Positions 5,378-47,877 of a stretch of 64,000 nt of DNA are shown piece after piece. Below the pieces are notes generated by a model that did no database searches, was not told the DNA's origin, and saw only the letters and a list, made by a program, of their open reading frames with translations. The number at the start of each line of letters is the position of its first letter. Position 1 is the first letter of the stretch. This DNA is from a virus (lineage: Duplodnaviria > Caudoviricetes), in IMG/VR virus record IMGVR_UViG_2663763243_000008, positions 1-64,000 of that record; one strand, written 5' to 3'. Made by a program: the position numbers and the translations under genes.

Positions 5378-5893
5378 TTACAAACCGATATTGCGACGGT
5401 GGGCTTCCAGCATATCGACGCCGTTGACCATCTCGACCATATTCACAATATCGACTTCGATCAGCACTTCACCGTCCCACGTCAATTTGTAGTAGGTGTT
5501 TTTGGTGGAAATCTTGGTCGTGATGTTATCGCCTTGCTTGCTGTCGCCGCCGTCAATTTCTTCATGACGGCCGCGCATCACGATTTCTACCGCGTGAGTT
5601 TCGCCGGTATCGTCGCGCTGATAGGAACCCGCAAAGCGCAGTAACACCCCGTCGACTTTGGTTACGCCCCATTGCTTGTAGATCTCGGACTCAATGCCGC
5701 CCAGCGTCCAGTCAACATCCAGCGCCCCGTCAGCCAGCCCCAAATCGACCTTAGCGCTGCCGTTCATGCCGCCACCGCGAAACTCTTCAAATTTGCGGTT
5801 GAGTTTTGGCAAGGTGATCGATTCAACCACCCCTTGATAGCTGTTCCCGTCATTGAATACATTCAGGAACTTAAGTTTGCGTGGTAATGCCAT
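5378..5893 (-). CDS. gpFII: Major tail tube protein FII
   Basis: MALPRKLKFLNVFNDG...FRGGGM signature. Confidence 0.95.
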   Translation of the reverse strand: MALPRKLKFLNVFNDGNSYQGVVESITLPKLNRKFEEFRGGGMNGSAKVDLGLADGALDVDWTLGGIESEIYKQWGVTKVDGVLLRFAGSYQRDDTGETHAVEIVMRGRHEEIDGGDSKQGDNITTKISTKNTYYKLTWDGEVLIEVDIVNMVEMVNGVDMLEAHRRNIGL

Positions 5894-5904
5894 GATTAAG
5901 CTCC

Positions 5905-7080
5905 TTAGCTATTAACGGCGGCGGCGAAATTAGCCAGATAACGATCCGTAATCCGCTGACGCAGGGTTAAATCCTCCAGCGGCGGCACCGGGGTGTAGTC
6001 GTAATCAATAAACAGGTGGCCCGCTTTGAGGGTGTCTTTATCGTTGACGCTATCGTCGTACCAGCAATCGCCATCAATCAGATAACCCAATGATTTCAGC
6101 TCGCGCATTTTGGCGCGAATGCCCTCAATAATGTCTTTTGCCAGTGACGGGGTAAGCGGCTTATCGTTGGCCCACATATGGGCCTCGGCCATGGTGTCAG
6201 CCAATACCTGCGCGGTGCGGGTGTAGTTCTCAAAGGCAAATAGCGGATCATCAGAGCAAGAACGGGAACCCCAAAAACGGTAACCGTCCTTGCGGATCAG
6301 GGTGGTAACGTCTTTGCTGTTAAGCAAGTTGGCATCGGTGGCGCTGTTTTGCAGATCCCAAAATACATCCGCACTGATACCGGTAACGCCATTGACGCCC
6401 ACGTTAGACAGTGTTTTATGCCAGCCAACATCATTATCAATCTTGGCGCGCAGGCCGAGGGCGCGGGCGGTCGCAAAGGCGGTAGCCTCGGCATTAGTGA
6501 CCGTATCCCAGCTAAGAAAGTCCGGCCAAATCACCATAGCCTCTCGCTGGCTGAAATTATCGCGGTAGATAATGGCCTCTTCTTTGGTTTTACAACCATA
6601 GGCGCTGATGTAGGCAAAGGCTCGTAGGCTCTGAGCTATGGCAAGTAGTTCAGTAGCAACCGCTTTGGTGTCATGACCGGGCACCCCCAAGATGCGTGGT
6701 TTAACATCAAACTTACCCTGCGCCGCTAACAGCGCTTTCATGCCGGTATAGCGGCCATCTGGCGTGGAGCCGCCGATAATATTGGAGGTGGTTTCGGCTT
6801 CGGTTTCACCCTGAGCCACTCGGACAACAATAGTCACGGGCTTGGTTTGGTCGCTGATAGCATCCAGTGAATGGGCCAATGTGCCGGTTTCACCGGCCTT
6901 GCCGCTGGCGGCCAGCACATCGGTGAGCAATACCGGGGTATTGAGTGGAAACAGGGTGGCGTCAGCATCATCGGAGGTACAGACCATCCCGACCACCGCC
7001 GTACTGACAGTGCGGATCGGGCGAGTGCCTTCGCTAATTTCAATGACGCGCACACCGTGGTGGTAATCGGTTGCAGACAT
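5905..7080 (-). CDS. gpFI: Tail sheath protein FI
   Basis: [11 protein letters not shown]...GWHKTLSNV...[11 protein letters not shown] signature. Confidence 0.96.
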
Positions 7081-7150
7081 GCGGTTTTCTCCGGTTAAGC
7101 GTTCATTCGCTATGATGCCGGATAACTACGCGCGGGGCAGTGGGTGGGGG

Positions 7151-7170
7151 TTGTGTGAGCGGTGGCACAA
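7151..7170. promoter_or_regulatory. Ogr-binding site of late promoter pF
   Basis: TTGTGTGAGCGGTGGCACAA = TGT-N12-ACA, upstream of FI. Confidence 0.85.
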
Positions 7171-7172
7171 TT

Positions 7173-7194
7173 AAAAAGCCCCTCAATAGGGGCT
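7173..7194 (-). terminator. Intrinsic terminator of the V-J-I-H-tfa operon
   Basis: AGCCCCT...AGGGGCT hairpin followed by T-run on the minus strand. Confidence 0.7.
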
Positions 7195-7205
7195 AGTCGG
7201 CTGGC

Positions 7206-7688
7206 TTATACTGCTGGCGGCCAAGTGGGAACAATATAGCCTTGATTGACCGCTTCTACTAATAGCCATTGCGACAGTTCCGGCAACTCAATTAGCGGCC
7301 AGCCCTCCAGTGTCGGCCATGCGCGATAAGCTGCGCGAACAGTGGCTAACTCGGTAAGCTGATTTTGGGTCAGTGGGATATCGTCAATACAGTAGTCACT
7401 GACCATTAGTGGATCGGTTGCCACAATGAAAGCATCCCGATAATGGCGTGCTTTAGCTGCCAATTCATCATCGGTTAATATTGGAAACGACAGAATATCA
7501 ATCCAATTCGGACGGCCATCAATAACACCAAGTTGCTTATTTATAGGGGGCATCTGTTTCCAATATGTAGTGAGCTCCTCAGTCGTCGGAACAATTAAAT
7601 CATCAGGCAGCGAATATCTGTAACTGCCATCTTTAATCATATTTTCCGCATAAAAGGCAACGGTACTAGGGGAGAACATTGCATTCAT
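7206..7688 (-). CDS. Tail fibre assembly chaperone
   Basis: Follows tail fibre; N-terminal FSPSTVAFY...P.D and GRP.W motifs typical of tfa proteins. Confidence 0.75.
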   Translation of the reverse strand: MNAMFSPSTVAFYAENMIKDGSYRYSLPDDLIVPTTEELTTYWKQMPPINKQLGVIDGRPNWIDILSFPILTDDELAAKARHYRDAFIVATDPLMVSDYCIDDIPLTQNQLTELATVRAAYRAWPTLEGWPLIELPELSQWLLVEAVNQGYIVPTWPPAV

Positions 7689-7691
7689 AAT

Positions 7692-9026
7692 TTAATATCC
7701 TATTGCAAAATAATCGACGCCAATAGCAATGCGTGTTGTTGCGTTAGTCCAGCCAGATAAAGCAAAACTCGAAAGAGATTTACTAGCATATGCGGCCCAT
7801 GCACCATTGGTATAACTGTTGTTTTGTGATGGATGGATACCCAATACTTTGTTAGGGAATGGAATAGGAAACGTCACTATGACATCGCCTGATGCTAAGG
7901 TTGTTGCAGCACCAAATTGAAAAATAAACCCACCGGGAACATCAGGAAAACGGAAATAGTCACTAGTACCAAACACTCTCTTGCCAAAAACACTCATTAA
8001 CCCAACCAGCGAAACCAGCTTATCCGCCGTTCCTACCTGCATTTCCGCATTAGAGGCAACGCCCTTTTTAGCGGCATCGCCCAAACCTAGGTTTGTAAGA
8101 AACTTCGCCACATCTGGAATATCACTGCCATTTTTAGCCTTATCCATTTTAGCGGCTAAAGCGTCAGTCATAGTGGTCGCGAAATCAGGATCATTACCCA
8201 GCGCATCAGCTAGCTTTTTCAAGGTATTGAGCGTGGTCGGTGACGATGCGACCAATGCGGAAATAGCCGCCTGAACGAATGCTGCACTAGCCACTTGCTG
8301 CGTATTGTTTCCCGCCGCTGGCGTAGGGGTTGTTGGCGTACCGGTCAACGCAGGGCTGGCAAGGGGCGCATAGTCGGCAAGAGATTGCTTAACATGCGCC
8401 GTGGTCGCCAGTTGTGTACTGTTATCGGTTTTTGCCGCCGTGGGGGCGGTCGGTTTGCCAGTTAATGCGGGGCTGGCTTTCGGTGCGTATCGTGAATGGG
8501 GATCAGTCGCTGCCAGATGCTTTTCCATCAGGTCATCCGTATAGGCTTTTACCACAATCACCTGATCATCCACATACTTACGCGTTGCCAGTACCACCGA
8601 GGGATCAATTTTCAGCGTGACCGCATCGGTACTACTGATAATCAACACCATACGCACGGTCTGTGTGCGGCCGCTACCCTCTTGTAGCTGGGGTTTGTAG
8701 GTGTCCGGGCAGTTGGCAATGGCGATCAAAATCCCATCTTTATCGAACAGGCCAACTTCGCGTATCCACCAACCGCCGTCCGTTTCAGGAATAACCTGTT
8801 CAGCGATAATCTGGCTACTGTTAGCCTCATCAATACTTAATGAATTGAGAGCCGCACGACGCTTCTCAGCGATAAGTTTAGTTTGTGCCGGGTTAGGTGT
8901 AGGTAATACACCACCGCCATCACCTACCGCCATATGCGTAATTTGTAATTGAGTACCGAGAGCGGCCGCATTTGCCAGCTTGGCCGCCCCCAAATTGGTC
9001 AGTAGCGCAAAATATTTCACTGTCAT
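7692..9026 (-). CDS. gpH: Tail fibre protein H
   Basis: Conserved P2 H N-terminus (LLTNLGAAKLANA...GGWWIREVGL...YKPQLQEGSGR), two YAP.ASPALTG.PT repeats, variable AT-richer C-terminus. Confidence 0.93.
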   Translation of the reverse strand: MTVKYFALLTNLGAAKLANAAALGTQLQITHMAVGDGGGVLPTPNPAQTKLIAEKRRAALNSLSIDEANSSQIIAEQVIPETDGGWWIREVGLFDKDGILIAIANCPDTYKPQLQEGSGRTQTVRMVLIISSTDAVTLKIDPSVVLATRKYVDDQVIVVKAYTDDLMEKHLAATDPHSRYAPKASPALTGKPTAPTAAKTDNSTQLATTAHVKQSLADYAPLASPALTGTPTTPTPAAGNNTQQVASAAFVQAAISALVASSPTTLNTLKKLADALGNDPDFATTMTDALAAKMDKAKNGSDIPDVAKFLTNLGLGDAAKKGVASNAEMQVGTADKLVSLVGLMSVFGKRVFGTSDYFRFPDVPGGFIFQFGAATTLASGDVIVTFPIPFPNKVLGIHPSQNNSYTNGAWAAYASKSLSSFALSGWTNATTRIAIGVDYFAIGY

Positions 9027-20184: not shown

Positions 20185-21948
20185 ATGGAAAGCGTTCTTA
20201 TCAATGCCGATTTAGACCCCCGCCGTCAAGCCATGTACCTCTATTGGCAAGGGCTGCGCATCGCCCGAATTGCGGAAATGATCGGTGAGAAAGCGGTCAC
20301 GGTACACAGTTGGAAGCGCCGCGACAAGTGGGACGCCTACGGGCCACTGGATCAGATGCAACTGACCACGGCAGCGGAATATTGCCGCCTGATCATGAAA
20401 CCTGTCAAGGAGGCCAAAGATTACAAAGAGATTGATCTGCTGGGCCGACAAGCCGAACGCCACGCCCGCATTGGTAAATACAATGATGGCGGCAATGAGG
20501 CCGATCTCAATCCCAATATTGAGAAGCGCAACAGCGGAACGCGCAAGGCTGCGCAGAAAAATGTATTCAGTGAGGCGCAGGTTGCCAAGCTGAAAGATAT
20601 TTTCAATGAATCCATGTTCGACTATCAACGTAACTGGTATGAAGCCGGTTTATCGCCTGATTTCCGTATTCGTAACTTGTTAAAATCTCGTCAGGTTGGC
20701 GCAACTTATTTCTTTTCTTGGGAAGCGCTGCTTGATGCGCTCGACACTGGCCGCAATCAGATGTTTGTGTCTGCCTCAAAAGCACAGGCGCACCAGTTTA
20801 AAAACTACATTGTCGCGGCTGCGCGCCAGGTGGATGTTGATTTGCGCGGTGAGGTAATTATTTTGCCTAATGGCGCGGAAATGCACTTTCTCGGTACCAA
20901 CGCCAGTACCGCACAGGGCCGCCCCGGCAATCTCTATCTGGATGAATATTTCTGGATACCTGGCTTTCAGAAGTTACGCCGCGCCGCATCCGGCATGGCC
21001 TCACAAAAAAGATACCGTTCTACCTATTTTTCTACGCCGTCCAGCACCTCGCATGAGGCTTACCCGTTCTGGGCTGGCACGCTGTTTAACAAAGGCAAAG
21101 CCAAAGATAAACGCATTGAAATTGATGTCAGTTATCCACGGCTGGCGGCTGGCCGGTTGTGTGAGGATAAGCAGTACCGCCAGATTGTCACCATTGAGGA
21201 TGCGCTGAAAGGTGGCTGCGACCTGTTTGATATTGATGAATTACGCAATGAAAACAGCGAGGAAGATTTCGAAAACCTGTTTATGTGCGGCTTTATTGAC
21301 GATAACGCCTCCACATTCAAATTGGCCGAAATGCAGCGCTGTATGGTCGATAGCTGGGAAAAATGGACAGACGTCAAACTGCTGGCGCTGCGCCCCTTTG
21401 GTGATCGTCCAGTGTGGATTGGCTACGACCCCGCCAGCACCGGCGATAGCGCCGGTTGTGCGGTGATTGCGCCGCCGGTAGTGGCGGGCGGTAAATTCAG
21501 GGTATTGGAGCGCCACCAGTGGAAAGGCATGGATTTTGCCGACCAGGCCAGCAATATCAAAAAAATTACTGAACGCTATAACGTCACTTATATCGGCATT
21601 GATGATACCGGTCTGGGCCGTTCCGTGACGCAATTAGTGCGGCAATTCTTCCCGGCGGTGAACGCCATTCACTACAGCTTAGAGATGAAAGCTGACCTGA
21701 TTTATAAGGCCAAAAATATTATTCAGGGCGGCCGTCTGGAGTTTGACGCGGGCTGCATTGATATCGCTACCGCGTTTATGTCGATCCGCAAAACCATGAC
21801 CGCCACCGGCCGCAATGCCACTTTTGTCACTGACCGCTCCAAAGACGTCAGTCACGGCGATGTGGCCTGGGCCATTATGCACGCCTTATTCCATGAGCCT
21901 CTTGAGGGCATTAACAGCAATAACACCAGTGTGATGGAGATATATTAA
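20185..21948 (+). CDS. gpP: Terminase ATPase subunit P
   Basis: LKSRQVGAT Walker A, LYLDEYFW Walker B, GYDPA nuclease motif, HGDVAWA. Confidence 0.96.
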   Translation: MESVLINADLDPRRQAMYLYWQGLRIARIAEMIGEKAVTVHSWKRRDKWDAYGPLDQMQLTTAAEYCRLIMKPVKEAKDYKEIDLLGRQAERHARIGKYNDGGNEADLNPNIEKRNSGTRKAAQKNVFSEAQVAKLKDIFNESMFDYQRNWYEAGLSPDFRIRNLLKSRQVGATYFFSWEALLDALDTGRNQMFVSASKAQAHQFKNYIVAAARQVDVDLRGEVIILPNGAEMHFLGTNASTAQGRPGNLYLDEYFWIPGFQKLRRAASGMASQKRYRSTYFSTPSSTSHEAYPFWAGTLFNKGKAKDKRIEIDVSYPRLAAGRLCEDKQYRQIVTIEDALKGGCDLFDIDELRNENSEEDFENLFMCGFIDDNASTFKLAEMQRCMVDSWEKWTDVKLLALRPFGDRPVWIGYDPASTGDSAGCAVIAPPVVAGGKFRVLERHQWKGMDFADQASNIKKITERYNVTYIGIDDTGLGRSVTQLVRQFFPAVNAIHYSLEMKADLIYKAKNIIQGGRLEFDAGCIDIATAFMSIRKTMTATGRNATFVTDRSKDVSHGDVAWAIMHALFHEPLEGINSNNTSVMEIY

Positions 21949-22988
21949 TGAGTAAACGCAACAGGAAAAGCCGCTCGGCCAAGGTGACAACAGCTATGGC
22001 GAGCAATAGCACCCCACAAGCCGAGGCGTTTACGTTTGACGACCCAACCCCGATGATGGATCAGCGCGATATTCTGGATTATCTGGAATGTGCAGTAATG
22101 GATCGCTGGTATGAGCCGCCGGTATCGTTCAATGGTCTGGCTAAGTCCTTTCGGGCGGCAGTGCATCATAGCTCACCTATCTATATGAAACGTAATGTAC
22201 TGGTTAGCCTGTTTGAGCCGCATCGGCTGCTATCCAAGCAGGATTTTAGCCGTTATGCGCTGGATTTTTTGGTGTTCGCCAACTCATTTTTAGAGGCCCG
22301 CTATAACCGGCTGGGCGGCATCATGAAACTGGTTCCCAGCCCAGCAAAATATACCCGCCGAGGTGTGGAGTCGGATACCTATTGGTATGTCTCATCCTAT
22401 GCCAATCCACACCCCTTTGAAGCCAACAGCGTTTTTCACCTGCTAGACCCGGACATTAATCAGGAGATGTACGGCGTTCCTGAATATCTCGCCTCGCTAA
22501 ATTCGACCTGGCTTAATGAAGCCGCCACGCTATTTCGCCGCAAATATTACCTGAATGGCAGTCACGCCGGATTTATTCTGTATATGAACGATGCCGCCCA
22601 TAAACAGGAGGATATTGACGCCTTACGCAAGGCGCTGAAAGAGTCCAAAGGGCCAGGCAATTTCCGTAATCTGTTTATGTATGCTCCAGCCGGTAAAAAG
22701 GACGGCATACAGGTGATCCCATTAGCAGAAGTGGCGGCGAAAGATGAGTTCGCCAGTATTAAGAATGTCACCCGCGACGACCAGCTCGCTATGCAACGGG
22801 TACCGCCGCAACTGATGGGCATTTTACCCAACAACACTGGCGGTTTTGGTGATGTAGAGAAAGCTGCGCGGGTGTTTGCTATTAACGAACTGGCCCCCTT
22901 GCAAGAGCGCCTGATGGAAATTAATGACTGGGTTGGGGAGGAAGTGGTGAGGTTCCGCCCCTATGATTTATTGGTTTCTGCGGGCTAA
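21948..22988 (+). CDS. gpQ: Portal protein Q
   Basis: WYEPPVS...HHSS...NQEMYGVPEY...KGPGNFRNLF. Confidence 0.96.
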   Translation: MSKRNRKSRSAKVTTAMASNSTPQAEAFTFDDPTPMMDQRDILDYLECAVMDRWYEPPVSFNGLAKSFRAAVHHSSPIYMKRNVLVSLFEPHRLLSKQDFSRYALDFLVFANSFLEARYNRLGGIMKLVPSPAKYTRRGVESDTYWYVSSYANPHPFEANSVFHLLDPDINQEMYGVPEYLASLNSTWLNEAATLFRRKYYLNGSHAGFILYMNDAAHKQEDIDALRKALKESKGPGNFRNLFMYAPAGKKDGIQVIPLAEVAAKDEFASIKNVTRDDQLAMQRVPPQLMGILPNNTGGFGDVEKAARVFAINELAPLQERLMEINDWVGEEVVRFRPYDLLVSAG

Positions 22989-23675
22989 CTAGTTCGGGGA
23001 TGTTTCAGCGCTATCTAGCTCTGTGCTGATAGGTGATTCATTCTCGATAGGGCTGTGAAGTTCATTGGGCTGGTTGTTGAAGTATTCGATGAATTTTTCA
23101 GCTATATTAATGCTGTTCCAAATAGATAAACTGCGAAATGCAATCGCAAGAAAGAGAAGTGATAAAAACACCCAAAGTATAATGCTTCCACTTTCATTAA
23201 TTAAAGTTAAGTTTGAGTAAGAAACATCTGCATTGGCTATTATTTTATTTTTGGTTATGAATGTGTAAGCAGTGACAAGTACAGAACAACTAATTAGATA
23301 TAAAACAACATAACTTGTTTTTTGGAATATCCTCTCTCTTTTAGATTCAAAACCCTTTGCATATACGGCGAAATTTTCATTGATTATATGGCAAGTTTTT
23401 AAATAACACCGTGCACTTTCAAAAAACGAGACAGATCTTGATGGATGTTGTGAGTTGAGTAATGAACAAATTTCATTAAATGTGACACCTTGCGCTCTTG
23501 TTAACCAGAAAAACAGTTTTTCAACCAGATATTTATTACATGGTTTTTTTTCATACTCAGAAATTAATTCGATGTCCAATTTGTATTTATCTTTCCACAC
23601 TGTGTGTCGATAAACAACAAAAGGTACAATAGTTCCTACAAGTACACCTAAAAGTGAAAAGAGTATTGATGCCAT
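22989..23675 (-). CDS. Membrane protein of unknown function (moron)
   Basis: AT-rich ORF, about three TM segments, convergent with Q; start chosen from AAGGA RBS (23684 also possible). Confidence 0.75.
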   Translation of the reverse strand: MASILFSLLGVLVGTIVPFVVYRHTVWKDKYKLDIELISEYEKKPCNKYLVEKLFFWLTRAQGVTFNEICSLLNSQHPSRSVSFFESARCYLKTCHIINENFAVYAKGFESKRERIFQKTSYVVLYLISCSVLVTAYTFITKNKIIANADVSYSNLTLINESGSIILWVFLSLLFLAIAFRSLSIWNSINIAEKFIEYFNNQPNELHSPIENESPISTELDSAETSPN

Positions 23676-23764
23676 TTGCAACATTCCTTTTAAAATAATA
23701 ATTGCCCAACATTTTATACTAAGTGTTCCCGAACGGCCTGTCACATCCCACGGATTTTACTTTC

Positions 23765-23811
23765 TGTGACATGTCACAAGGCTCTTGATTTTGTTTCTGT
23801 GCCATGTCACG
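23765..23811. repeat. TGTGACATGTCACA palindrome and adjacent variant
   Basis: Exact at 23765-23778, TGTGCCATGTCACG at 23798-23811, both preceded by TTTC. Confidence 0.85.
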
Positions 23812-24019
23812 ATTTTAAAAGAGCAAGCCGCAACGGCCACCTCGAAAGTCTGTGATAATTGCTCGAATTGTTTAGTAAACTTACTACCACAACCCTGCAA
23901 GTTCAAAGCGCAACAATCCGCATTATTCTATTCACCCCCCAATCATTATCTAAGCCGCGCCAACACTGGGTTTTAAGCCTCTTTCTAGCTGCATAAAAAC
24001 TGAATATTTAGTCATACAA

Positions 24020-24080
24020 AGCGCGGGTGGGGGGAGCGCGCGGAAAGAGGTGTGAGCGGTGCTTTAATCCTCCTCATATA
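24020..24080. other. Possible cos region
   Basis: GC-rich patch in the Q-A interval; minus strand ATGAGGAGGATTAAAGCAC only partly resembles the P2 cohesive end GGCGAGGCGGGGAAAGCAC. Confidence 0.3.
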
Positions 24081-24377
24081 TGCCCGAACCCTCCCCTGAA
24101 TGCATGTACGCCACTCTGTTCTTTTAGCTCGAAATGATTAGTGAGACGAAAATAAAAAAAACACTTCTATGTGTGGGGGATTTGGAGGGGAAATCGAATG
24201 GTTTTTTTGTTCTACCCAAATCTGACTGTCGTCTTTGTGCTGAAGCTGACTCTTTCTAGTTCACGTGATAATGTCAGACAGCACAACTCATATAAGGATT
24301 ACCAGTGAACATTAAATACAAGCTCACTGGCTGTTTTGCTAATGGAGCAAAGTCAGAAAATTACAATGAACATTCCT

Positions 24378-26063
24378 TCATTTTTGTAAATGATACCAAA
24401 GAGCAGGAGGAACTGGTGTTCTGAAATGTCGACAAGCTATAAAATCCAGAACTGTTAAACCAGCCTTTCCTGCACTTGATTCGGTGAAAAAATTATACCT
24501 ATCCATTTCTTTCAACTCATCCATTCTTGCTTGATAATCATTCATACTATCTGGGAATGTGATTGGAGCTTCTGTTTCACCTAAGACATATTGTGCTTGG
24601 TGAAAATATAGATGATGATAAAGATCATTAGTAGGGTGCCATAGTTGGGCGCACATCTTCGGATAAAATTCTTTTATTCCTTTCAGTAGTACATTATATC
24701 CATTTTCTTTTTTAAGGATGACTGCCCACCCCATTAAAGTAGGTATTATCCAAGATGTACTTGTTGTCTTTTCTATCAAATACTTGTCGTTATTATTGCA
24801 ATCTAAACAGATGAGATCATCAAGTGAGTCTGTTGATATAGGGTGATTTCGGCCAACTCTAAAAACAAAATCGAGTCTTGTAATCAATGTCTTGAACCAG
24901 TCTTCAGCTTTGTCCATTTTTTCTGTAAGGTATAAAAGCATAAAGGCTAGCGTAATATCAATTGCATTTTCATCGAGCCGAGGGGAGCCTGAGGCAGGAT
25001 TATTACTGATAAGCGAGCATAAGCTTTCAGCAACAATTTGAGCATTGCTAAATCTGGTTACTTGTTCTTCCCCTCCGGATTGTAGAGCGGTGATATAATT
25101 GTTTAGTCCAATGGTAGAAAGTATACCTATTTGTTCAAATATGGTTAGATTAATTAATGCACTTTCGGAAGAGTATGATGATAGAAGATATTTCTCATGA
25201 AAATATGGCTGAAGTTTTGAAAAGTATTCATTTGAGACATTAAGATAGCTCTGCCATAAAATTTCAATAGCTGGAAAATATCGATGTGGCTTTTTTTCGA
25301 GATTAATACGATGCCATACCCATAGTAAACATCGTTCCGATACATAAAGTGCTTGTTTGGTATTTCCATCTTGGATTGCCCAGTATGCCAGAATGTTGGT
25401 AGCGAGATAACAAGTTCGGATTGACTTTTCTAGATCAGAACTCTTTATTTCTCTAGTTTTTCTTCCTTTAATATCAAGTTGCAGTGTTCGAAGTAATAAA
25501 CGATGAAAATCCTCTCTTGAATAATCATTCTCACAAATTAATGATAATGACTTTCTTAAGTCAGTTCTGTCGTCGTCATTGAATATATGCTCATTTAGCA
25601 TGTACCCTTCAATAAGGGTTGCTAATTTTGCAGCGCCCCAGAAATCAAACGCATAAGGCTTATGGTCTTCAATATAACCTGACCAGCTTTGGCTCAACTC
25701 TTCTTTCATGTCACCACTGGTAGATAGTATGATCTTTTTAGGTAGTTTTTTATGCTCTGGCAATAAGTGATTCTTGATATAAACGTCAAAAATTTCATTT
25801 AAACTCGGCCTAATTGCATTTATCCCTGAATCCCATTCCACTCTGCCCAAATCTTTTTGTTTGATCACAAAGAGAAATATTTTCTTTACACCATCTTCTG
25901 GATCTTTGCCTATTGCGGCAATATCCACACCGTACTGCCTAGTGCCAGTTTGTGTTGTAAACAAGGGGATAATATCCATTGATAGCAATAAACTGGGCAG
26001 CAGTCTGTCAAGTTCATTTCTTTCTTTTAATGTTTTAATATATTGAGAAATTAAGATCTTCAT
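24378..26063 (-). CDS. Putative anti-phage protein with N-terminal PD-(D/E)xK/Mrr-like nuclease motif
   Basis: E..(QYGVDIAA)..(LFVIK) pattern followed by a long helical region; ATG overlaps upstream stop (ATGA); AT-rich; A-Q hotspot. Confidence 0.7.
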   Translation of the reverse strand: MKILISQYIKTLKERNELDRLLPSLLLSMDIIPLFTTQTGTRQYGVDIAAIGKDPEDGVKKIFLFVIKQKDLGRVEWDSGINAIRPSLNEIFDVYIKNHLLPEHKKLPKKIILSTSGDMKEELSQSWSGYIEDHKPYAFDFWGAAKLATLIEGYMLNEHIFNDDDRTDLRKSLSLICENDYSREDFHRLLLRTLQLDIKGRKTREIKSSDLEKSIRTCYLATNILAYWAIQDGNTKQALYVSERCLLWVWHRINLEKKPHRYFPAIEILWQSYLNVSNEYFSKLQPYFHEKYLLSSYSSESALINLTIFEQIGILSTIGLNNYITALQSGGEEQVTRFSNAQIVAESLCSLISNNPASGSPRLDENAIDITLAFMLLYLTEKMDKAEDWFKTLITRLDFVFRVGRNHPISTDSLDDLICLDCNNNDKYLIEKTTSTSWIIPTLMGWAVILKKENGYNVLLKGIKEFYPKMCAQLWHPTNDLYHHLYFHQAQYVLGETEAPITFPDSMNDYQARMDELKEMDRYNFFTESSAGKAGLTVLDFIACRHFRTPVPPALWYHLQK

Positions 26064-27970
26064 ACGACACCCTTTTTCGCGCATCTGAACTGAGCAATGC
26101 TGATATCATAACCAACATTATCCATTACATATCGTCGAGGTAGAGAATAACTACTAGAGAAATTTTGTAAATAAGATGGCTTACTGTAACCTTTATTGTT
26201 GAAGTCATCGTAGTAAAATGATCCAATGCCTGATTTTAATGTTATTTGAGATGCTATCTTAAATAAAAAAGATTCTTCCTTATGTAGATCGTTACTCCTT
26301 GTCATTACTTTATCTTTTTCCTTCTGAAAATTATGTACGAGCAATGAAGGGGGGGCAAATTCTTTTACTTTAGGAAGAGATGTGAATGAATAAAAATAGT
26401 TATCAATTTCAGTTAGCATTTCACTATATAATTTTATTAATTTGCTTTTTTGACCTTTAATACTATCTTGCCGTTTTTTTATTTCATGTCGTACATAACT
26501 AGGATAGTCAATCGCTATTTCATTTATAATCACATCTTTAACAAGACTATATGTTCTATTTCCTGCATTTTTTACCTTTAATAAAGAGAGTGTCAGCGAT
26601 GTTAACTGCGTCTCGTTTGAGATAAAGCCCAATAGTCTACGCACTAAGAAAATAATATCTTGCTGTGTGAAGTTGTTAATAGTCTCAATGCAGAACTCTA
26701 ATATATGTGTACTTTGGTGTACTAACAGGTACTTTGCTAGTATGCGCGAAAAAATGGTAGTTCCGATATTTTCATCAATCAATGTCAATGTGAATAATTT
26801 ATTAAGTAAATTAGGGTAATTTATTACAGTATAGATAAAGCTTTCAATTTTATTACTATCTTCTGATATTGAATTATTTCGCATCATTATAAAAATACAA
26901 TCAGTTAATAATTCATGTTTTGATTCATCTTTAGCTAAATGTGACAGTGTGTGGAAAATATTTCCACTTAAGGCATCATTATTAATTGAAGCTTTACAAA
27001 TACAAGATAACCAAAGTGAAAAATCACTATGGGAAGCTAATTGTCTTGTTATATATATTTTTAAGGATAGTACCTCTATTAGCTTTTGATTATTCGACTC
27101 TAGCAGTTTGCGAATAACAATACGAATTTCAGGTAGTTTCACCACACTATCTACGGCAGCTTGAATCGCCGCATCAGATATCTCTGGAATAGGGGACGAA
27201 ATAGTATTCTTGATAACCTTAACTATTTCACTGCTTCTGTATCGATTGCTGCTTTTTTCTACAATCCTACCAAGAATCCATAAGGACTGGGGAGACAGAA
27301 TATTATTATTTCTTTCTATGTCGCGGATCAAAATATCAATGGCTGTAGTGTGATTTTGTTTTTCTAGCGAGAACAAAGCAATGTTATAAAGTTGTAGAGT
27401 GTCTAGGTGTATATTAGAATGAATATTATTGATTATCTCATGGCATTTTTGTGTGGTATTAGACAATTTTTTTTCTAATGATGAGTATATTCCTATATAT
27501 TGATTTTTTCCTTTGTAAATAGCGGAAAAGAAATGAAACAGCTTTTGTATATCTATATTTTTTGTATGTTGTATAAACTGATCTGCTAGCGACGTAATTG
27601 CATAGGAATTACGTTCAGTCATGAGTAATGATTGCCATATGTCAAGTTTATCCTCATATAAGCTGAGGAATAAACCAGCAACTGTTGTATTTCCACCTAA
27701 AGTTTTTTCCCATATGCTAAACGCAGTCAGTATTATTATATTTTCTTCATTGACACAATCACTACCCATTTCTGAAAAGTAGTGATAGGCAACGTAATTA
27801 TCTCTATCATCATAAGATGAAAAGACTAATTTATCACCATTTAAACAATAACCATCTGATTTCTTGTTGAGAATCAACGAAAGCTCATGCTCTGCAAGTT
27901 GATATTCTAGGGCATCGATATTTGTCAAAAAAAGTTTATGAGCGATATTTTGAACAATACTATCTTTCAT
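26060..27970 (-). CDS. Large helical (HEAT/ARM-like) hypothetical protein, first gene of a putative defence operon
   Basis: 636 aa, Leu/Ile-rich, very AT-rich, GGGGGAGA RBS; no catalytic motif recognised. Confidence 0.7.
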   Translation of the reverse strand: MKDSIVQNIAHKLFLTNIDALEYQLAEHELSLILNKKSDGYCLNGDKLVFSSYDDRDNYVAYHYFSEMGSDCVNEENIIILTAFSIWEKTLGGNTTVAGLFLSLYEDKLDIWQSLLMTERNSYAITSLADQFIQHTKNIDIQKLFHFFSAIYKGKNQYIGIYSSLEKKLSNTTQKCHEIINNIHSNIHLDTLQLYNIALFSLEKQNHTTAIDILIRDIERNNNILSPQSLWILGRIVEKSSNRYRSSEIVKVIKNTISSPIPEISDAAIQAAVDSVVKLPEIRIVIRKLLESNNQKLIEVLSLKIYITRQLASHSDFSLWLSCICKASINNDALSGNIFHTLSHLAKDESKHELLTDCIFIMMRNNSISEDSNKIESFIYTVINYPNLLNKLFTLTLIDENIGTTIFSRILAKYLLVHQSTHILEFCIETINNFTQQDIIFLVRRLLGFISNETQLTSLTLSLLKVKNAGNRTYSLVKDVIINEIAIDYPSYVRHEIKKRQDSIKGQKSKLIKLYSEMLTEIDNYFYSFTSLPKVKEFAPPSLLVHNFQKEKDKVMTRSNDLHKEESFLFKIASQITLKSGIGSFYYDDFNNKGYSKPSYLQNFSSSYSLPRRYVMDNVGYDISIAQFRCAKKGVV

Positions 27971-28301
27971 TCTCCCCCCTTAGTGGAAGGTACTATGCCA
28001 AGATTCACTTGTATGCTTATAACAGAAAAAGCATTCTGACAAGCTCTATTAAATCAATATCTTTAATTTTAACATCATGCATTGATATGATCTGTGTACT
28101 GCAAAAGGAGGAACGATACTCAATGTAACGACTCACAAGGGAGATTATCTATCCCCACTCGTGTGGTAAGCCTGCTTCTTGCTTTAACCGACGACAAAAT
28201 TAATTTTAGTCCACCACATCTTTCCATCAGGCAAAGCAACAGTAAATACATTCAAAACCACAATAAAACATGTGCCTTCGTTTTATCTATTTATCAGTCA
28301 G

Positions 28302-28646
28302 CTAAATTGCATCCAACATCAACCTCTTATACCCCAATGTCTGCCAACACTCCGAATCCCCCTGCAAACAGCAACCAGCTTTATCACCTGGCAGCGTATC
28401 CCCGCACCGCTTACAGCTACTTTTCCTCAATTCGGCAAGTTGTTTATGCAGTTGCCTATTATCCTGGCGGATCAGGCTGGCTAAATACTCGGTCACCTCA
28501 TAAGGCTGGCGAGCAATGCGGCGCTGCTCGCATCCCTCCAGCACCATAGCCAATTCCTGTGCATCTAAACGCAGGGTAAGGGTAGTTATACCTAACTCTT
28601 TATCACGTTGGCGCTGAGCGCGTTTACGGTCACTTGCTGTCATCAT
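28302..28646 (-). CDS. Small protein with basic N-terminus, RHH-like core and C-terminal Cys cluster
   Basis: RKRAQRQR...PYEVTEY..LIRQD...CKRCGDTLPGD..GC...SECWQTLG; homologous to 50036-50389. Confidence 0.8.
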   Translation of the reverse strand: MMTASDRKRAQRQRDKELGITTLTLRLDAQELAMVLEGCEQRRIARQPYEVTEYLASLIRQDNRQLHKQLAELRKSSCKRCGDTLPGDKAGCCLQGDSECWQTLGYKRLMLDAI

Positions 28647-28873
28647 TTTTTATACCCCTGGCCTTTTTCCGCCAGCCCACGAATTGCTGGGCGGGCCAAT
28701 ATGATCCTCTGGCAAGCGTGAATCGCTCGGCAGAATTCATCACGCTCACAAGGATGTTCAATCGGAAGCAGTAAATATTGATTCCATGCATCACCCAGCA
28801 TTTGAGCCACTCGCTGTTCATCGACTGACAATGTGCAAATGGTGTCGGTGTAATTAATGTTGGTGACTGTCAC
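28643..28873 (-). CDS. Hypothetical phage protein
   Basis: Coupled between A and the next gene by overlaps. Confidence 0.7.
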   Translation of the reverse strand: MTVTNINYTDTICTLSVDEQRVAQMLGDAWNQYLLLPIEHPCERDEFCRAIHACQRIILARPAIRGLAEKGQGYKK

Positions 28874-31478
28874 TGTTTACTCCCTCTCGTAATTTCGCCA
28901 CTCGGCTCATTACACTAAATGCCCGCTGGGCGGTGGTTGGTTGGCACTGATACAAACAACAATCCTCTCTTGCCCGCCAGTTCTGGCCGCCGATGGTCAA
29001 CGTTGCGCCGCAAGCCAGTGATTGCGCCTGCTGTTTGCTAATGGAAAGCCCGATTGACTCGGCAAAATCACGGATTTTTGTTGTCACTGGTGCCAGTTGT
29101 ACGGTTTTTTCTTGCCGCTGGGCGGCCTTTTTGGCTGATACCTGGCGTGATAATTCCTCGGCTGGCGTCAATGGATTGGTTTTAATCGTTGCTACCGGCG
29201 TATTTTTAATCCTGCGCAGCAAGGCCCGGCGTTCTGCATCGGTGATCGCGGTGAAATCGATTATTTTTTCTTCTAATGTTCTGTCTATGGCCTCCTCCGG
29301 TTCGCATATTTTTTGCTCTACCGGAGAGTTATTGACAGAACTCCAAGGGACGGCGGGGCCGTCCTGAAAAACATCAAACCCCACGGCAACAGCGGGTTTC
29401 ACCTTTTGGCGGGCGACAATTTTCCAAGTTTTTAGGCGAGTACAGATGCGCGACGCCTCGCCCAAAAGCGGGGAATAGATACCGAAAATCTTCTCGGTGA
29501 TTTCGCCGTAGGCGTTGGGCTGTTCATTGTCCTGATAGGCAATGCGTACGGTATATTCTTCGCGGGGAATTAAGACGCCACCCTGCTGCATGATGTAGGT
29601 AGCAAAACAACTGACATCAGCCGCCGACATAACCGCATCCATTGCCGGATCAAGTAATAGCTTTTTCCCTCGCATGGCGGCTACTTTCGCTGCAATGTCT
29701 GCGGGGTCGGTTTTTTTATCTATCAGGCGCTGTATGGCTAACTTAAATTCATCTGACTTAATCAGATCATTGAGTAGCTGGTTATTCAGCTTGCGCAGCT
29801 CCCGCCAGACAGTCACCGGCGGCGTGCCTATGGGCTGATATTGGCGGATACGGTGACGAGATGCCCAGGCCATAGCAAAACGAGCCGTTTCTTTCAGCGG
29901 TTTGCCAGTTTCATGGTCTAGTTCACCGTCCAGTGCGTAACCATCAATATTTTTACTGATGTATTTAGCGATATAGGCGGTAGCGCTGCCTTTCTTTGGA
30001 TCCAGCCGTTTAGCAGTAAATCGGGCGCTAGTGCGCTTACCTAATTCGGCGCGATCAGTTTTGACGGCATAGGCGCGCATAATCTCAGTGATTGCGCGGC
30101 GCTCTTCCGGTTTCATGAATAATAGTAAGTGCCAGTGCGGCGTGCCGTCATGATGTGGCTCGGCTACGCGAAAACCGTAGACGCGCAGTTCTTCTCGGCC
30201 CAACTTGGATCCGATGTTGGCCCACAGCTTGGTGAGATAGGCTTGTGCCTGTGGTGGGGTGCTGTGATTCCACTTGGGGTTGGCATGGCCGCTTTGGTTG
30301 TTGGCGTGGTATTTAGATGGGCAAGTGATGGTGTAAAATACCCCAACATCACCACGCGACTGCGCAACCAGTTCGATCCCTTTCATGCGTGCCATTAGCT
30401 CATGGCGGCGAATAGTCGGATTGCTGATACTGGCATCCACCATTGCCTCTAAAGAAACAGTGTTGCCCTCATCATCAACTAATTCATGTCGTTTAAAAAA
30501 TTCACGGTTCCGGCGTTTTTGCTCTATCCAGTCGGCCAATGCCTCTTTACTGACATAAGGTGCGGCGCGTTTATGGATCATTCCTGCGGCGCGCAACTGG
30601 CTTTCTCGCCAGTCATTACGCAGTCGCCACAATTTACGCTCCCACCAGTCGGGATTAATCAATCGGGCAATAGCGGAGTAAAAGGTGGCGCGGTCTACGG
30701 GTTTATCTTGGTGGCCGGGCTTCGGCCCCAATTCACGCCAGTGCGACGGCCTGACGCGCAAAGACCACACTTCAAGCGCAATATTGCGATAAATGGTTAA
30801 TAACTCGGCATCAGATAAATTGCGGGTTTCTTCTGTGGGTGTGGATACCTCAGTGCAAAACATTTCATTAATACGGCCAGCAATATCATTTGCCAGCGAC
30901 TTAACCCGGCGCTTATTTAGCTCGGCAAGGTGGCTGTAAATTCCCTGAAAATAAGCCATTAACTCAGATTTACGGCCCTTGCTCACACCCTGATATTCGC
31001 GCACAGCATCTAGACGTAACAATGCATTCTTGCCGGTGCCGGTTAAGAATGCATTGGTATGTTTATCGCCATGATTTTCACGTAACCATCTAATTTTATT
31101 TTGAAAGTGAGACTTAATAAAAATAGGCTGCTCGTCAATACGGGATTCTATGCCTTGCGGTGAATCCGTCCATTGTTGCTTATCGCGCAAATATATCTCG
31201 CGCTCCAGCTCGGCGTGCTCCCTACGCATTTTAAGTAAGGTTTGATTCGGCTCCCGTAATTCGGTAAAGCCCAGCGCATTCAGGCGTTTTACGTAACGGA
31301 TAACCAGCGGATGTGATTTAGGTTTTACCACTACAGCAACCGGCGCTAAAGGTTGATAACCACCAATCGCGGGGCGCGGAGCATTCCATGAGTGATCCCA
31401 TTCAAAAGAAACATCACCGCCGCCTGGATAAGGCAGCGGTGGCGCTGGGATGATGCGGTCACGGGCATGCTCAGTCAT
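28854..31478 (-). CDS. gpA: Rolling-circle replication initiator A
   Basis: TITCPSKYH, RVAEPHHDGTPHWH (HUH), YIAKYISKNIDG; start placed at ATG 31478 overlapping the dam stop. Confidence 0.95.
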   Translation of the reverse strand: MTEHARDRIIPAPPLPYPGGGDVSFEWDHSWNAPRPAIGGYQPLAPVAVVVKPKSHPLVIRYVKRLNALGFTELREPNQTLLKMRREHAELEREIYLRDKQQWTDSPQGIESRIDEQPIFIKSHFQNKIRWLRENHGDKHTNAFLTGTGKNALLRLDAVREYQGVSKGRKSELMAYFQGIYSHLAELNKRRVKSLANDIAGRINEMFCTEVSTPTEETRNLSDAELLTIYRNIALEVWSLRVRPSHWRELGPKPGHQDKPVDRATFYSAIARLINPDWWERKLWRLRNDWRESQLRAAGMIHKRAAPYVSKEALADWIEQKRRNREFFKRHELVDDEGNTVSLEAMVDASISNPTIRRHELMARMKGIELVAQSRGDVGVFYTITCPSKYHANNQSGHANPKWNHSTPPQAQAYLTKLWANIGSKLGREELRVYGFRVAEPHHDGTPHWHLLLFMKPEERRAITEIMRAYAVKTDRAELGKRTSARFTAKRLDPKKGSATAYIAKYISKNIDGYALDGELDHETGKPLKETARFAMAWASRHRIRQYQPIGTPPVTVWRELRKLNNQLLNDLIKSDEFKLAIQRLIDKKTDPADIAAKVAAMRGKKLLLDPAMDAVMSAADVSCFATYIMQQGGVLIPREEYTVRIAYQDNEQPNAYGEITEKIFGIYSPLLGEASRICTRLKTWKIVARQKVKPAVAVGFDVFQDGPAVPWSSVNNSPVEQKICEPEEAIDRTLEEKIIDFTAITDAERRALLRRIKNTPVATIKTNPLTPAEELSRQVSAKKAAQRQEKTVQLAPVTTKIRDFAESIGLSISKQQAQSLACGATLTIGGQNWRAREDCCLYQCQPTTAQRAFSVMSRVAKLREGVNSDSHQH

Positions 31479-32310
31479 GTAATTGCGCCGGAATTGTCGC
31501 AATAATTTCTCCGATACTTTTTCTGCCATCACTTTTACAACTGATAGAGCGTGGAGCCGTAATAGAGTGGAGGGTGAAACGGCTATAGAGGTCGCGACTG
31601 ATAGAGGTATTGCTATTGGAGGCAACAACATGACAGCCATTTTCAGCAGCCCTTGCCAGTAGGCGGGCTAAACGAAATTGCTGATCAGCGCTAAAACCAT
31701 CGGTGTGATAATGGGTAAAGTCAGCAGTGCTGGATACCGGGATATAAGGCGGATCGCAATAAATCACATCACCCGCAACAGCCATTTCCAGTGTTTCGGA
31801 GAAATCACAACATAAGAAAGTCGCTTTCTTGGCTTTTTCAGCAAAGAAACGGATCTCTGCTTCGGGGAAATAAGGTGTTTTGTATTTGCCATAGGGGACG
31901 TTAAATCGCCCTTGTTGGTTATAGCGACAAATACCATTAAAACAATGGCGATTTAGATAAAGGAAGATTGCTGCTCTGGATATATCATCACGGTTTCGTG
32001 CATTAAATATTTTGCGGAAAATATAATATTGTTCGTCGGAATTAGCCGTAAGAAACAGTGAGGAAGCCACATTGATTAAGTCGCTCGTTTCTCTTTTCGC
32101 TATCTCATAGAAGTTAATCAGATCATCATTGATATCTGTTATCAGATATTCATCATAATCCGTATTCAGCATAACAGAACAGGAACCAGCAAACGGTTCT
32201 ACCAATCGTTTACCAGTTGGCAAATGTTGAAGTAAGGTTGGCATAATACGAGCCTTTGAACCGACCCACTTCAGCGGAGAGCGATTTATTGTCATTAGCC
32301 GCTTACTCAT
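31471..32310 (-). CDS. dam: DNA adenine methyltransferase
   Basis: LKWVGSK, LVEPFAGS, FNVPYG, YCDPPY. Confidence 0.95.
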   Translation of the reverse strand: MSKRLMTINRSPLKWVGSKARIMPTLLQHLPTGKRLVEPFAGSCSVMLNTDYDEYLITDINDDLINFYEIAKRETSDLINVASSLFLTANSDEQYYIFRKIFNARNRDDISRAAIFLYLNRHCFNGICRYNQQGRFNVPYGKYKTPYFPEAEIRFFAEKAKKATFLCCDFSETLEMAVAGDVIYCDPPYIPVSSTADFTHYHTDGFSADQQFRLARLLARAAENGCHVVASNSNTSISRDLYSRFTLHSITAPRSISCKSDGRKSIGEIIATIPAQLHD

Positions 32311-47374: not shown

Positions 47375-47877
47375 ATATTTCAACCGATGGCATGATTGCT
47401 GCAATTCGTTCAGCAGCGGAAAGAGTGGAACCACGTGAAAGTGAGGTGCTAAACGGCATCGCTGATCGCATAGCGGAGCTGGTGACCTCAGCTAATAAGA
47501 ACCGGCGCACAGCGAAGCATTATGAGCGGGAGTGTTTGGAGTGGCAGGGGAAATATAATGTGATTGTTGCCGAGAACGCAGCACTTCAACAATCCTGCGT
47601 CCATGTATATAACGCTGGTTACAACAGGGGGCATCTGAATACGGTAGATGGCATCTCTTCATGTGGCGACTATGAAGAAGATGCATTTGAGGCGCTATAC
47701 GAAGTAATTAGTGTCCCTGCAACCATTCTGGCTCTTAATGATGTAGAGGCGAGTGGTGTTGAAAAATTTGCGCAGCACCGTCACGTACAAGCCTTTGACG
47801 TTGGTGTAATGGCAGATACAGGCGAGATTTCCAATATTCTTGATTTCGCAGCAAGACTACGTGAGGGGGCGCAATGA
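47371..47877 (+). CDS. Hypothetical (Ead/Ea22-like accessory) protein
   Basis: AENAAL..., A.GVEKFA and FAARLREG mosaic motifs; RBS GAGGCGAGACC. Confidence 0.6.
   Translation: MNISTDGMIAAIRSAAERVEPRESEVLNGIADRIAELVTSANKNRRTAKHYERECLEWQGKYNVIVAENAALQQSCVHVYNAGYNRGHLNTVDGISSCGDYEEDAFEALYEVISVPATILALNDVEASGVEKFAQHRHVQAFDVGVMADTGEISNILDFAARLREGAQ

Follow-up and report, generated by a model that had tools for sequence, protein, structure and literature searches.

Introduction

The Olokun anti-phage system consists of two proteins, OloA and OloB, which have been classed as an adaptin-like protein and a PD-(D/E)XK nuclease, respectively (10.1101/2025.07.10.664194). This preprint reports a mass of ∼278 kDa by mass photometry for the purified PfOlokun complex and presents an AlphaFold3 model of a 2:2 OloA–OloB assembly with the nuclease domains side by side. 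[quoted passage not shown] Olokun does not appear where the preprint lists systems with Walker A partners. Here, we describe the gene pair at positions 24378–27970 of a stretch of viral DNA of 64,000 nucleotides (Duplodnaviria; Caudoviricetes; positions 1–64,000 of the IMG/VR record IMGVR_UViG_2663763243_000008; this whole stretch is referred to as the window), which is predicted to be an intact copy of Olokun carried by a P2-like prophage.

Olokun is credited by PMC10121019 to its reference 7. In other literature the mechanism is still listed as unknown or poorly characterised. Reference 7 of the paper mentioned above, the source of Olokun, is said to be the work of Millman et al. from 2022. 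Within a limited literature collection, we found no mechanistic paper on Olokun beyond the preprint 10.1101/2025.07.10.664194.

Identification of the gene pair

Both products of the pair match PADLOC models nearly end to end. The first protein matches the OloA model PDLC03925 with an E-value of 1.4e-76, residues 76–633 aligning with positions 20–594 of a profile of 596 positions and the first 75 residues lying outside the model. The second matches the OloB model PDLC03926 with an E-value of 5.3e-182 (residues 1–559 on positions 1–553 of 556). A profile search of the whole record returned a single OloB match (E-value 3e-183) with no internal stops. Owing to these matches, we assign the pair, as predicted from its two products, to the named Olokun system as an intact member and not as a new system. 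A previous reading of the window, made from its letters and a list of open reading frames (ORFs) and referred to here as the sequence-only reading, had described an unrecognised operon that could not be assigned to a named type; the confident matches of both proteins to OloA and OloB overturn this claim. Its broader proposal of a sensor or scaffold acting with a nuclease effector in defence was right in kind, as the locus encodes a predicted solenoid and a PD-(D/E)xK fold in a variable slot of a P2-like prophage; its main claim, that the system had no name, was wrong.

General family databases would not have given this name. Searches of both proteins against Pfam, NCBIfam and PHROGs gave no significant family, the best match being DUF1672 at an E-value of 0.001, below the cut-off of that family, which explains both the failure of a reading without tools to name the pair and the label ‘hypothetical protein’ given to close homologues in public records. 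The same three databases detected no NTPase, TIR, SIR2, reverse transcriptase or methylase, in line with what had been noted from the letters. OloB shares 96% identity with a protein of Yersinia alsatica and 73% with an E. coli protein, and the identity between OloA and its Y. alsatica counterpart, the partner of that OloB, is 90%. When the island was compared with complete E. coli genomes by megablast, no match was obtained, and neither did a tblastn search of OloB against a phage collection, with the limit in both cases that records close to the window may be excluded.

The two genes (Table 1) lie on the minus strand, within an AT-rich slot of 4.1 kb that is bounded by the portal gene and by replication gene A of the prophage. 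The G+C content is 0.29–0.37 over both genes versus 0.50–0.52 in the phage backbone on either side. These data agree with the sequence-only reading in its account of two AT-rich ORFs of 636 and about 561 residues, joined by an ATGA overlap in the interval from the replication genes to the portal. The longest ORF for oloB extends from 24378 to 26084 and encodes 568 residues, and the ATG within the ATGA overlap gives a protein of 561 residues. The latter start is taken to be correct, given that both the first position of the OloB profile and the N-termini of homologues line up with it. Given this junction, oloA and oloB are predicted to be translationally coupled. Searches found 346 homologues of OloB and 49 of OloA, and for this reason the operon is not a chance pair of ORFs. 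Scans for promoters (24 versus 21.7 in shuffled sequence) and terminators (4 versus 3.5 in shuffled sequence) showed no excess, and no promoter is claimed; an Rfam search of 22500–29000 found no family. Three raw RNA runs carrying the same species label placed no reads on 21900–29900, a result that has no bearing on whether this copy is expressed.

The OloB nuclease subunit

The AlphaFold2 (AF2) model of OloB was built from 71 sequences and has a mean predicted local distance difference test (pLDDT) score of 87.5. Residues 1–155 are modelled as an α–β–β–β–α–β core (helix 15–28, strands 31–36, 48–53 and 60–68, helix 84–99 and strand 109–115), and residues 163–561 as all-helical. In a structural comparison with VIA-align, the best match to residues 1–160 was the FokI cleavage domain (2fok_A; Z score 11.1, root-mean-square deviation 3.7, 143 aligned residues), followed by the small subunit of BspD6I (2p14_A; Z 10.3), N.BspD6I (2ewf_A; Z 10.1), AF1548 (1y88_A; Z 10.0), MspJI (4f0p_A; Z 9.0), the Mrr-like domain of LlaBIII (Z 8.1) and NucS (Z 7.5). 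The match to this domain was obtained by VIA-align only, and a comparison of the OloB profile with PDB sequences gave nothing better than an E-value of 0.19. The resemblance to Mrr/PD-(D/E)xK nucleases suggested by the sequence-only reading thus holds for the PD-(D/E)xK fold; the Mrr label is loose, since the FokI and BspD6I structures (Z 10.1–11.1) rank ahead of the Mrr-like domain of LlaBIII. No Pfam family was found for OloB at an E-value of 1 or below.

Five residues of the nuclease domain, Glu14, Glu17, Asp19, Asp47 and Lys68, are invariant in the 71 OloB sequences. They are also invariant in 14 of the most divergent members, which include a subgroup with a short partner and members from viral contigs. 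Asp47 is located at the start of strand 2 and Lys68 in strand 3 of the PD-(D/E)xK-type core. The E…GVD…FVIK pattern picked out in the earlier reading corresponds to Glu14/Glu17, Gly45-Val46-Asp47 and Phe65-Val66-Ile67-Lys68, and that reading was also borne out by the models in expecting the remainder of the second protein, and the first protein, to be helical (OloB residues 163–561 and OloA up to residue 530 are modelled as almost all-helical).

The helical domain of OloB (residues 161–561) gave only generic helical-repeat matches and no specific structural relative in Foldseek and VIA-align, and an Atlas search with it was uninformative, giving a single cluster without a name at 0.85. This domain contains many invariant polar and aromatic residues (Glu243, Arg244, Trp248, Trp250, Arg252, Gln473, Trp475, His476, Asp540, Arg545 and His546). 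It may serve to bind DNA or OloA, or may hold a second functional site.

The OloA solenoid

The AF2 model of OloA (46 sequences, mean pLDDT 79.5) predicts a helical-repeat solenoid up to residue 530, followed by a low-confidence tail of residues 531–636. The low-confidence segments are 531–552 and 554–636, and the last ∼105 residues have a pLDDT below 50. Foldseek matched the model to CAND1, importin-α, PP2A-A and AP-2 with E-values of 7e-4 to 4e-3, and OloA is accordingly modelled as a HEAT/ARM solenoid. A Pfam search of OloA found no NTPase family.

OloA diverges faster than its partner: its identity is lower than that of OloB in all 41 loci with long matches to both proteins. The divergence is uneven along the chain, with a mean identity to distant homologues of 27–30% in residues 431–636 versus 16–18% in residues 71–430.

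Conservation of the pair

A pattern scan with one genome per species returned 94 relatives of OloB, of which 80 loci were retained. At 59 of these, a same-strand ORF of 557–798 residues ends at the OloB start, and all 59 full-length upstream ORFs match the OloA profile, as does the window protein (60 of 60 scanned). Homologues of the two genes, for which the sequence-only reading had proposed a check of co-occurrence, do therefore occur together, with a full-length OloA directly upstream. The other loci carry an upstream ORF of ∼290–325 residues instead of a full-length OloA (12 of 80), a truncated or broken OloA-like sequence (seven of 80) or no OloA-like sequence (two of 80, one of them at a contig edge). 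An NTGA start/stop junction is present at 55 of the 80 OloB loci, all from other genomes. A pattern scan of IMG/VR viral contigs identified four distant OloB loci and no others.

The neighbourhood was surveyed through the 124 immediate ORFs that flank 66 operons; four loci were dropped beforehand because the full OloB ORF was not found by the script. No family is recurrent among these ORFs as a third gene, the commonest Pfam family being phage integrase (four of 124). Besides these four integrases, the neighbours include two transposases, two type I restriction specificity subunits and two AbiU2-type HEPN genes. Because the order with OloA is conserved and no third gene recurs in this survey, Olokun is seen, at the level of gene content, as a pair that is complete in itself and travels between mobile and defence settings. 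A methyltransferase was considered as a partner and was rejected: one is present in the P2-like contig L085 described below, but none is found among the 25 commonest Pfam families of the 124 neighbours.

The 12 loci with a short OloA (L065, L068–L072, L075, L077–L080 and L082) form a subtype. In the four of their short OloA proteins that were scanned, the match to the OloA profile is confined to its C-terminal part (positions 312–591 at widest); the remaining eight are 31–62% identical to one of these four. The OloB-like proteins of the subtype are 24–29% identical to OloB of the window and keep Glu14, Glu17, Asp19, Asp47 and Lys68. At one of these loci (L072, 70–7674, on an Azonexus chromosome), a Mokosh type I pair, comprising MkoA with kinase and helicase domains and MkoB, is directly upstream of the short-OloA pair and shares its strand. 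The idea that Olokun and Mokosh are linked was rejected, as this adjacency is seen at this locus only and at none of the 11 other short-OloA loci.

Prophage context

The backbone around the pair is that of a P2-like (Peduoviridae) prophage, the closest phage being Yersinia phage vB_YenM_42.18 (Table 1). In a blastn comparison, homology to this phage ends at 24128 and restarts at 28212, and the intervening segment is on this ground regarded as exchanged cargo. The corresponding slot of vB_YenM_42.18 is filled by a different gene of 871 residues (5599–8217 of the phage locus), annotated as ‘chromosome partition protein Smc’. Its product gave a partial PADLOC match to Ppl in the C-terminal half (E-value 2.5e-28) and weak LmuB/SMC-type matches, and is probably another defence gene. 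We take the position of the slot, from the portal/cos side to gene A, to be the tin/old interval of P2. Prophage and satellite defence hotspots, this interval among them, are said to have been described by Rousset et al. in 2022.

A second occupation of the site was found in a distant P2-like contig of IMG/VR (L085, 1869–9716), in which genes for a type II methyltransferase, OloA (E-value 2.4e-59) and OloB (E-value 1.8e-174) directly follow gpP and gpQ. The gpP and gpQ proteins of this contig are 43% and 50% identical to those of the window, respectively, and its cargo genes are on the same strand as gpP/gpQ, whereas the operon of the window runs on the opposite strand. With an identity of only ∼29% between its OloB and that of the window, the contig represents an independent occupation of the same site by Olokun. 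The pair in the window is very probably swappable lysogenic-conversion cargo of a P2-like prophage slot, a view that forms part of the overall explanation developed below.

Three further features of the record lie outside the pair. A membrane-type ORF (22989–23744, minus strand; 251 residues as the longest ORF, 228 residues from a MASILF start) lies against the portal gene. A homologue occupies the equivalent position in vB_YenM_42.18 with an identity of only 59%, versus 95–99% for neighbouring backbone proteins, and the ORF shows a weak PADLOC match to ‘2TM effector’ (E-value 0.0079). As a membrane protein of a phage that evolves fast, the product could act in superinfection exclusion. It was rejected as a third Olokun component and is assigned to the phage itself, since vB_YenM_42.18, which has no Olokun, carries the homologue at that position. 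The ORF at 28302–28646 (minus strand, 114 residues), located on the gene A side of the slot, belongs to the phage backbone: a hypothetical protein encoded at the equivalent position of vB_YenM_42.18 shares 94.7% identity with its product, for which there is no Pfam or PADLOC match. What remains of the window and the record, from ∼39000 to 64000 of the window and 64001 to 79813 of the record, is a second prophage that follows the P2-like one, with no housekeeping genes in this part. From reading the translations, this prophage appears to contain ORFs resembling a replication initiator and a DnaB-like helicase, a long module of tail genes that includes a tape-measure protein and a tip protein of 1046 residues, and an ORF of 721 residues (47874–50039) resembling a DNA cytosine methyltransferase.

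Table 1. Features of the Olokun locus and its surroundings, in window coordinates
Feature	Coordinates	Strand	Description	Basis
gpP-like terminase	20185..21948	+		98.6% protein identity to annotated gene of Yersinia phage vB_YenM_42.18 (Peduoviridae)
gpQ-like portal	21948..22988	+	Left anchor of hotspot	95.1% protein identity to GpQ of vB_YenM_42.18
Variable cargo slot	24129..28211		Without counterpart in closest phage	blastn versus vB_YenM_42.18
oloB	24378..26063	-	561 residues; predicted Olokun nuclease subunit	ORF, PADLOC OloB match, AF2
OloB residues 161–561	24381..25583	-	Predicted all-helical domain	AF2 secondary structure
OloB residues 1–160	25584..26063	-	Predicted PD-(D/E)xK-fold nuclease domain, FokI-cleavage-domain-like	VIA-align and invariant residues
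ATGA overlap	26060..26063	-	oloB start codon/oloA stop codon	Direct sequence reading (gtcgtATGAag)
oloA	26060..27970	-	636 residues; predicted HEAT/ARM-type α-solenoid partner	ORF, PADLOC OloA match, AF2/Foldseek
OloA residues 431–636	26063..26680	-	Best conserved part across distant homologues	Mean identity comparison
Shine–Dalgarno-like purine run	27971..27980	-	Directly 5′ of oloA ATG	Direct sequence reading
gpA-like replication protein	28854..31640	-	Right anchor of hotspot	95.0% protein identity to GpA of vB_YenM_42.18

Proposed mechanism and alternatives

The explanation that we hold with high confidence is that of an intact Olokun pair, carried as cargo of a P2-like prophage, whose products would form a nuclease complex that degrades phage DNA directly. 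OloA and OloB would be translated from one coupled transcript (the coupling is seen in the sequence, and a single transcript would follow from it) and, by analogy with the homologue PfOlokun, would form a 2:2 assembly. OloB would be the effector, with two FokI-like N-terminal domains pairing to nick or cut the DNA; the chemistry would involve Asp47, Lys68 and an acid from helix 1 (Glu14, Glu17 or Asp19) replacing the acid that is missing at position 66. FokI/BspD6I-type cleavage domains cut only once they are paired. The side-by-side nuclease domains modelled for Olokun in the preprint fit such pairing-dependent cutting. OloA would provide regulation and specificity: the ∼200 conserved residues at its C-terminus may hold OloB, and its fast-diverging N-terminal solenoid may set when and on what OloB acts, so that phage DNA would be degraded and host DNA spared. 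We infer this specificity role from the divergence patterns together with the in vitro selectivity of PfOlokun described in the preprint.

Several points weigh against this explanation. As to expression and protection, the window copy is known from its genes, and the sensor role suggested for the OloA solenoid is derived from divergence rates. When the complete OloB model was searched against the PDB with Foldseek, nothing matched at an E-value of 0.001 or below, MspJI being found at 0.025. Position 66, which usually holds the second acid of the (D/E)xK motif, is valine in OloB of the window and in at least 90% of the 71 sequences; in all 14 divergent sequences it is Val, Ile, Leu, Thr or Ser and never acidic. 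FokI-type sites carry the second acid at the place where OloB has Val66. Relocated acids do occur in the PD-(D/E)xK superfamily (Cfr10I/NgoMIV type). The site of the OloB family is likely to be non-canonical in this sense, with one of the three invariant acids assigned to helix 1 as the substitute. In the preprint, cleavage in vitro only partly matched defence in vivo, and the contact with OloA is placed on an ‘N-terminal helical domain’ of OloB (10.1101/2025.07.10.664194); our model of OloB of the window has the nuclease domain at the N-terminus and the helical domain after it. In view of this disagreement about the N-terminus of OloB, the OloA–OloB interface proposed here is tentative.

The alternative that best withstands the evidence is abortive infection, in which OloA would act like an antitoxin that shuts a promiscuous OloB until a phage cue frees it, host and phage DNA would both be destroyed and the cell would die. 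Other PD-(D/E)XK systems of the preprint panel are described as cutting all DNA in vitro and yet being non-toxic, which implies regulation in cells, and the disturbance of the complex by OloB active-site mutations would fit an OloA positioned at the active-site region. The conserved C-terminal tail of OloA, which is modelled as disordered when alone, and the ATGA coupling, which would fix the stoichiometry of OloA to OloB, are consistent with this arrangement as well. However, according to the preprint the purified PfOlokun complex, which includes OloA, is itself able to degrade certain phage DNAs while leaving the genomic DNA of E. coli undegraded, which argues for direct discrimination of targets and against the release of a non-specific toxin; we consider abortive infection unlikely, though worth keeping in view.

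A further reading is put forward tentatively, as a rather speculative proposal. Olokun might be a modular nuclease with an exchangeable sensor, in which the acid-deficient site of OloB is held incomplete or covered by the C-terminus of OloA, including the tail that is disordered alone, and the N-terminal solenoid of OloA, dispensable in the naturally occurring short-OloA subtype, serves as a swappable receptor for phage components. Contact of OloA with the active-site region of OloB would fit the loss of the complex on active-site mutation reported in the preprint. If this were true, the N-terminal half of OloA could reveal which phages are targeted and could be used to reprogramme that specificity.

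The remaining alternatives fare worse. It is improbable that the copy is decaying cargo that no longer functions, as both frames are full-length relative to the profiles and free of stops, all family-invariant residues are present, and the Shine–Dalgarno sequence and the coupling junction are intact. Still less probable is that the genes serve the phage itself in host-DNA breakdown, packaging or as a replication accessory. Their location inside a prophage, adjoining packaging and replication genes, would be expected in that case, but the closest phage lacks the pair and carries other cargo in the slot despite backbone proteins that are 95–99% identical, most homologues are chromosomal, with integrases, transposases, a type I specificity subunit and AbiU2-type HEPN genes recurring among the 124 neighbours, and only the four distant homologues emerged from IMG/VR. 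That the genes constitute a new, unnamed sensor-and-nuclease defence system, as the lack of a significant family in Pfam, NCBIfam and PHROGs and the ‘hypothetical protein’ names of close homologues might suggest, has a negligible chance of being correct in view of the full-length matches to both PADLOC models, the 60 of 60 scanned upstream partners that match OloA and the treatment of Olokun by name in several papers.

The locus is thus real but ordinary, in that PADLOC names both of its genes. Its modest interest lies in providing a clean case in which Olokun is the exchangeable cargo of the slot that P2-like phages have from portal to gene A, with a second, independent case in contig L085. 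For studies of mechanism, it draws attention to three points: the family-wide absence of the canonical second acid in OloB, the faster divergence of OloA around a conserved C-terminal region, and the subtype with a short OloA.

Comparison with known systems

The FokI cleavage domain and the BspD6I subunits, the best structural matches to residues 1–160 of OloB, align over 137–145 residues with a sequence identity of only 6–10%, which indicates a shared fold and not family membership. Unlike FokI, OloB has no FokI-type DNA-recognition domain and no cognate methyltransferase, none being found among the 25 commonest Pfam families of the neighbours. With respect to the P2 tin/old interval, the position of the slot is the same and so is its behaviour as a swap site, with different defence-like cargo in vB_YenM_42.18 and another Olokun in contig L085, although the cargo genes of the window are unrelated to tin and old. 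The Olokun-like pairs with a short OloA differ from the window copy, which is the long form, in having a partner without the N-terminal half of the solenoid. At 636 and 561 residues (∼70 and ∼62 kDa at 110 Da per residue), the two proteins of the window would give a 2:2 complex of a mass comparable to that of PfOlokun, reported as ∼278 kDa. The window copy shares its gene order, strand and start/stop overlap with the known Olokun system, and likewise shared are the predicted PD-(D/E)xK-fold domain of OloB and the adaptin/HEAT-like solenoid of OloA. The window copy is a diverged, enterobacterial-type member of Olokun with no difference in architecture.

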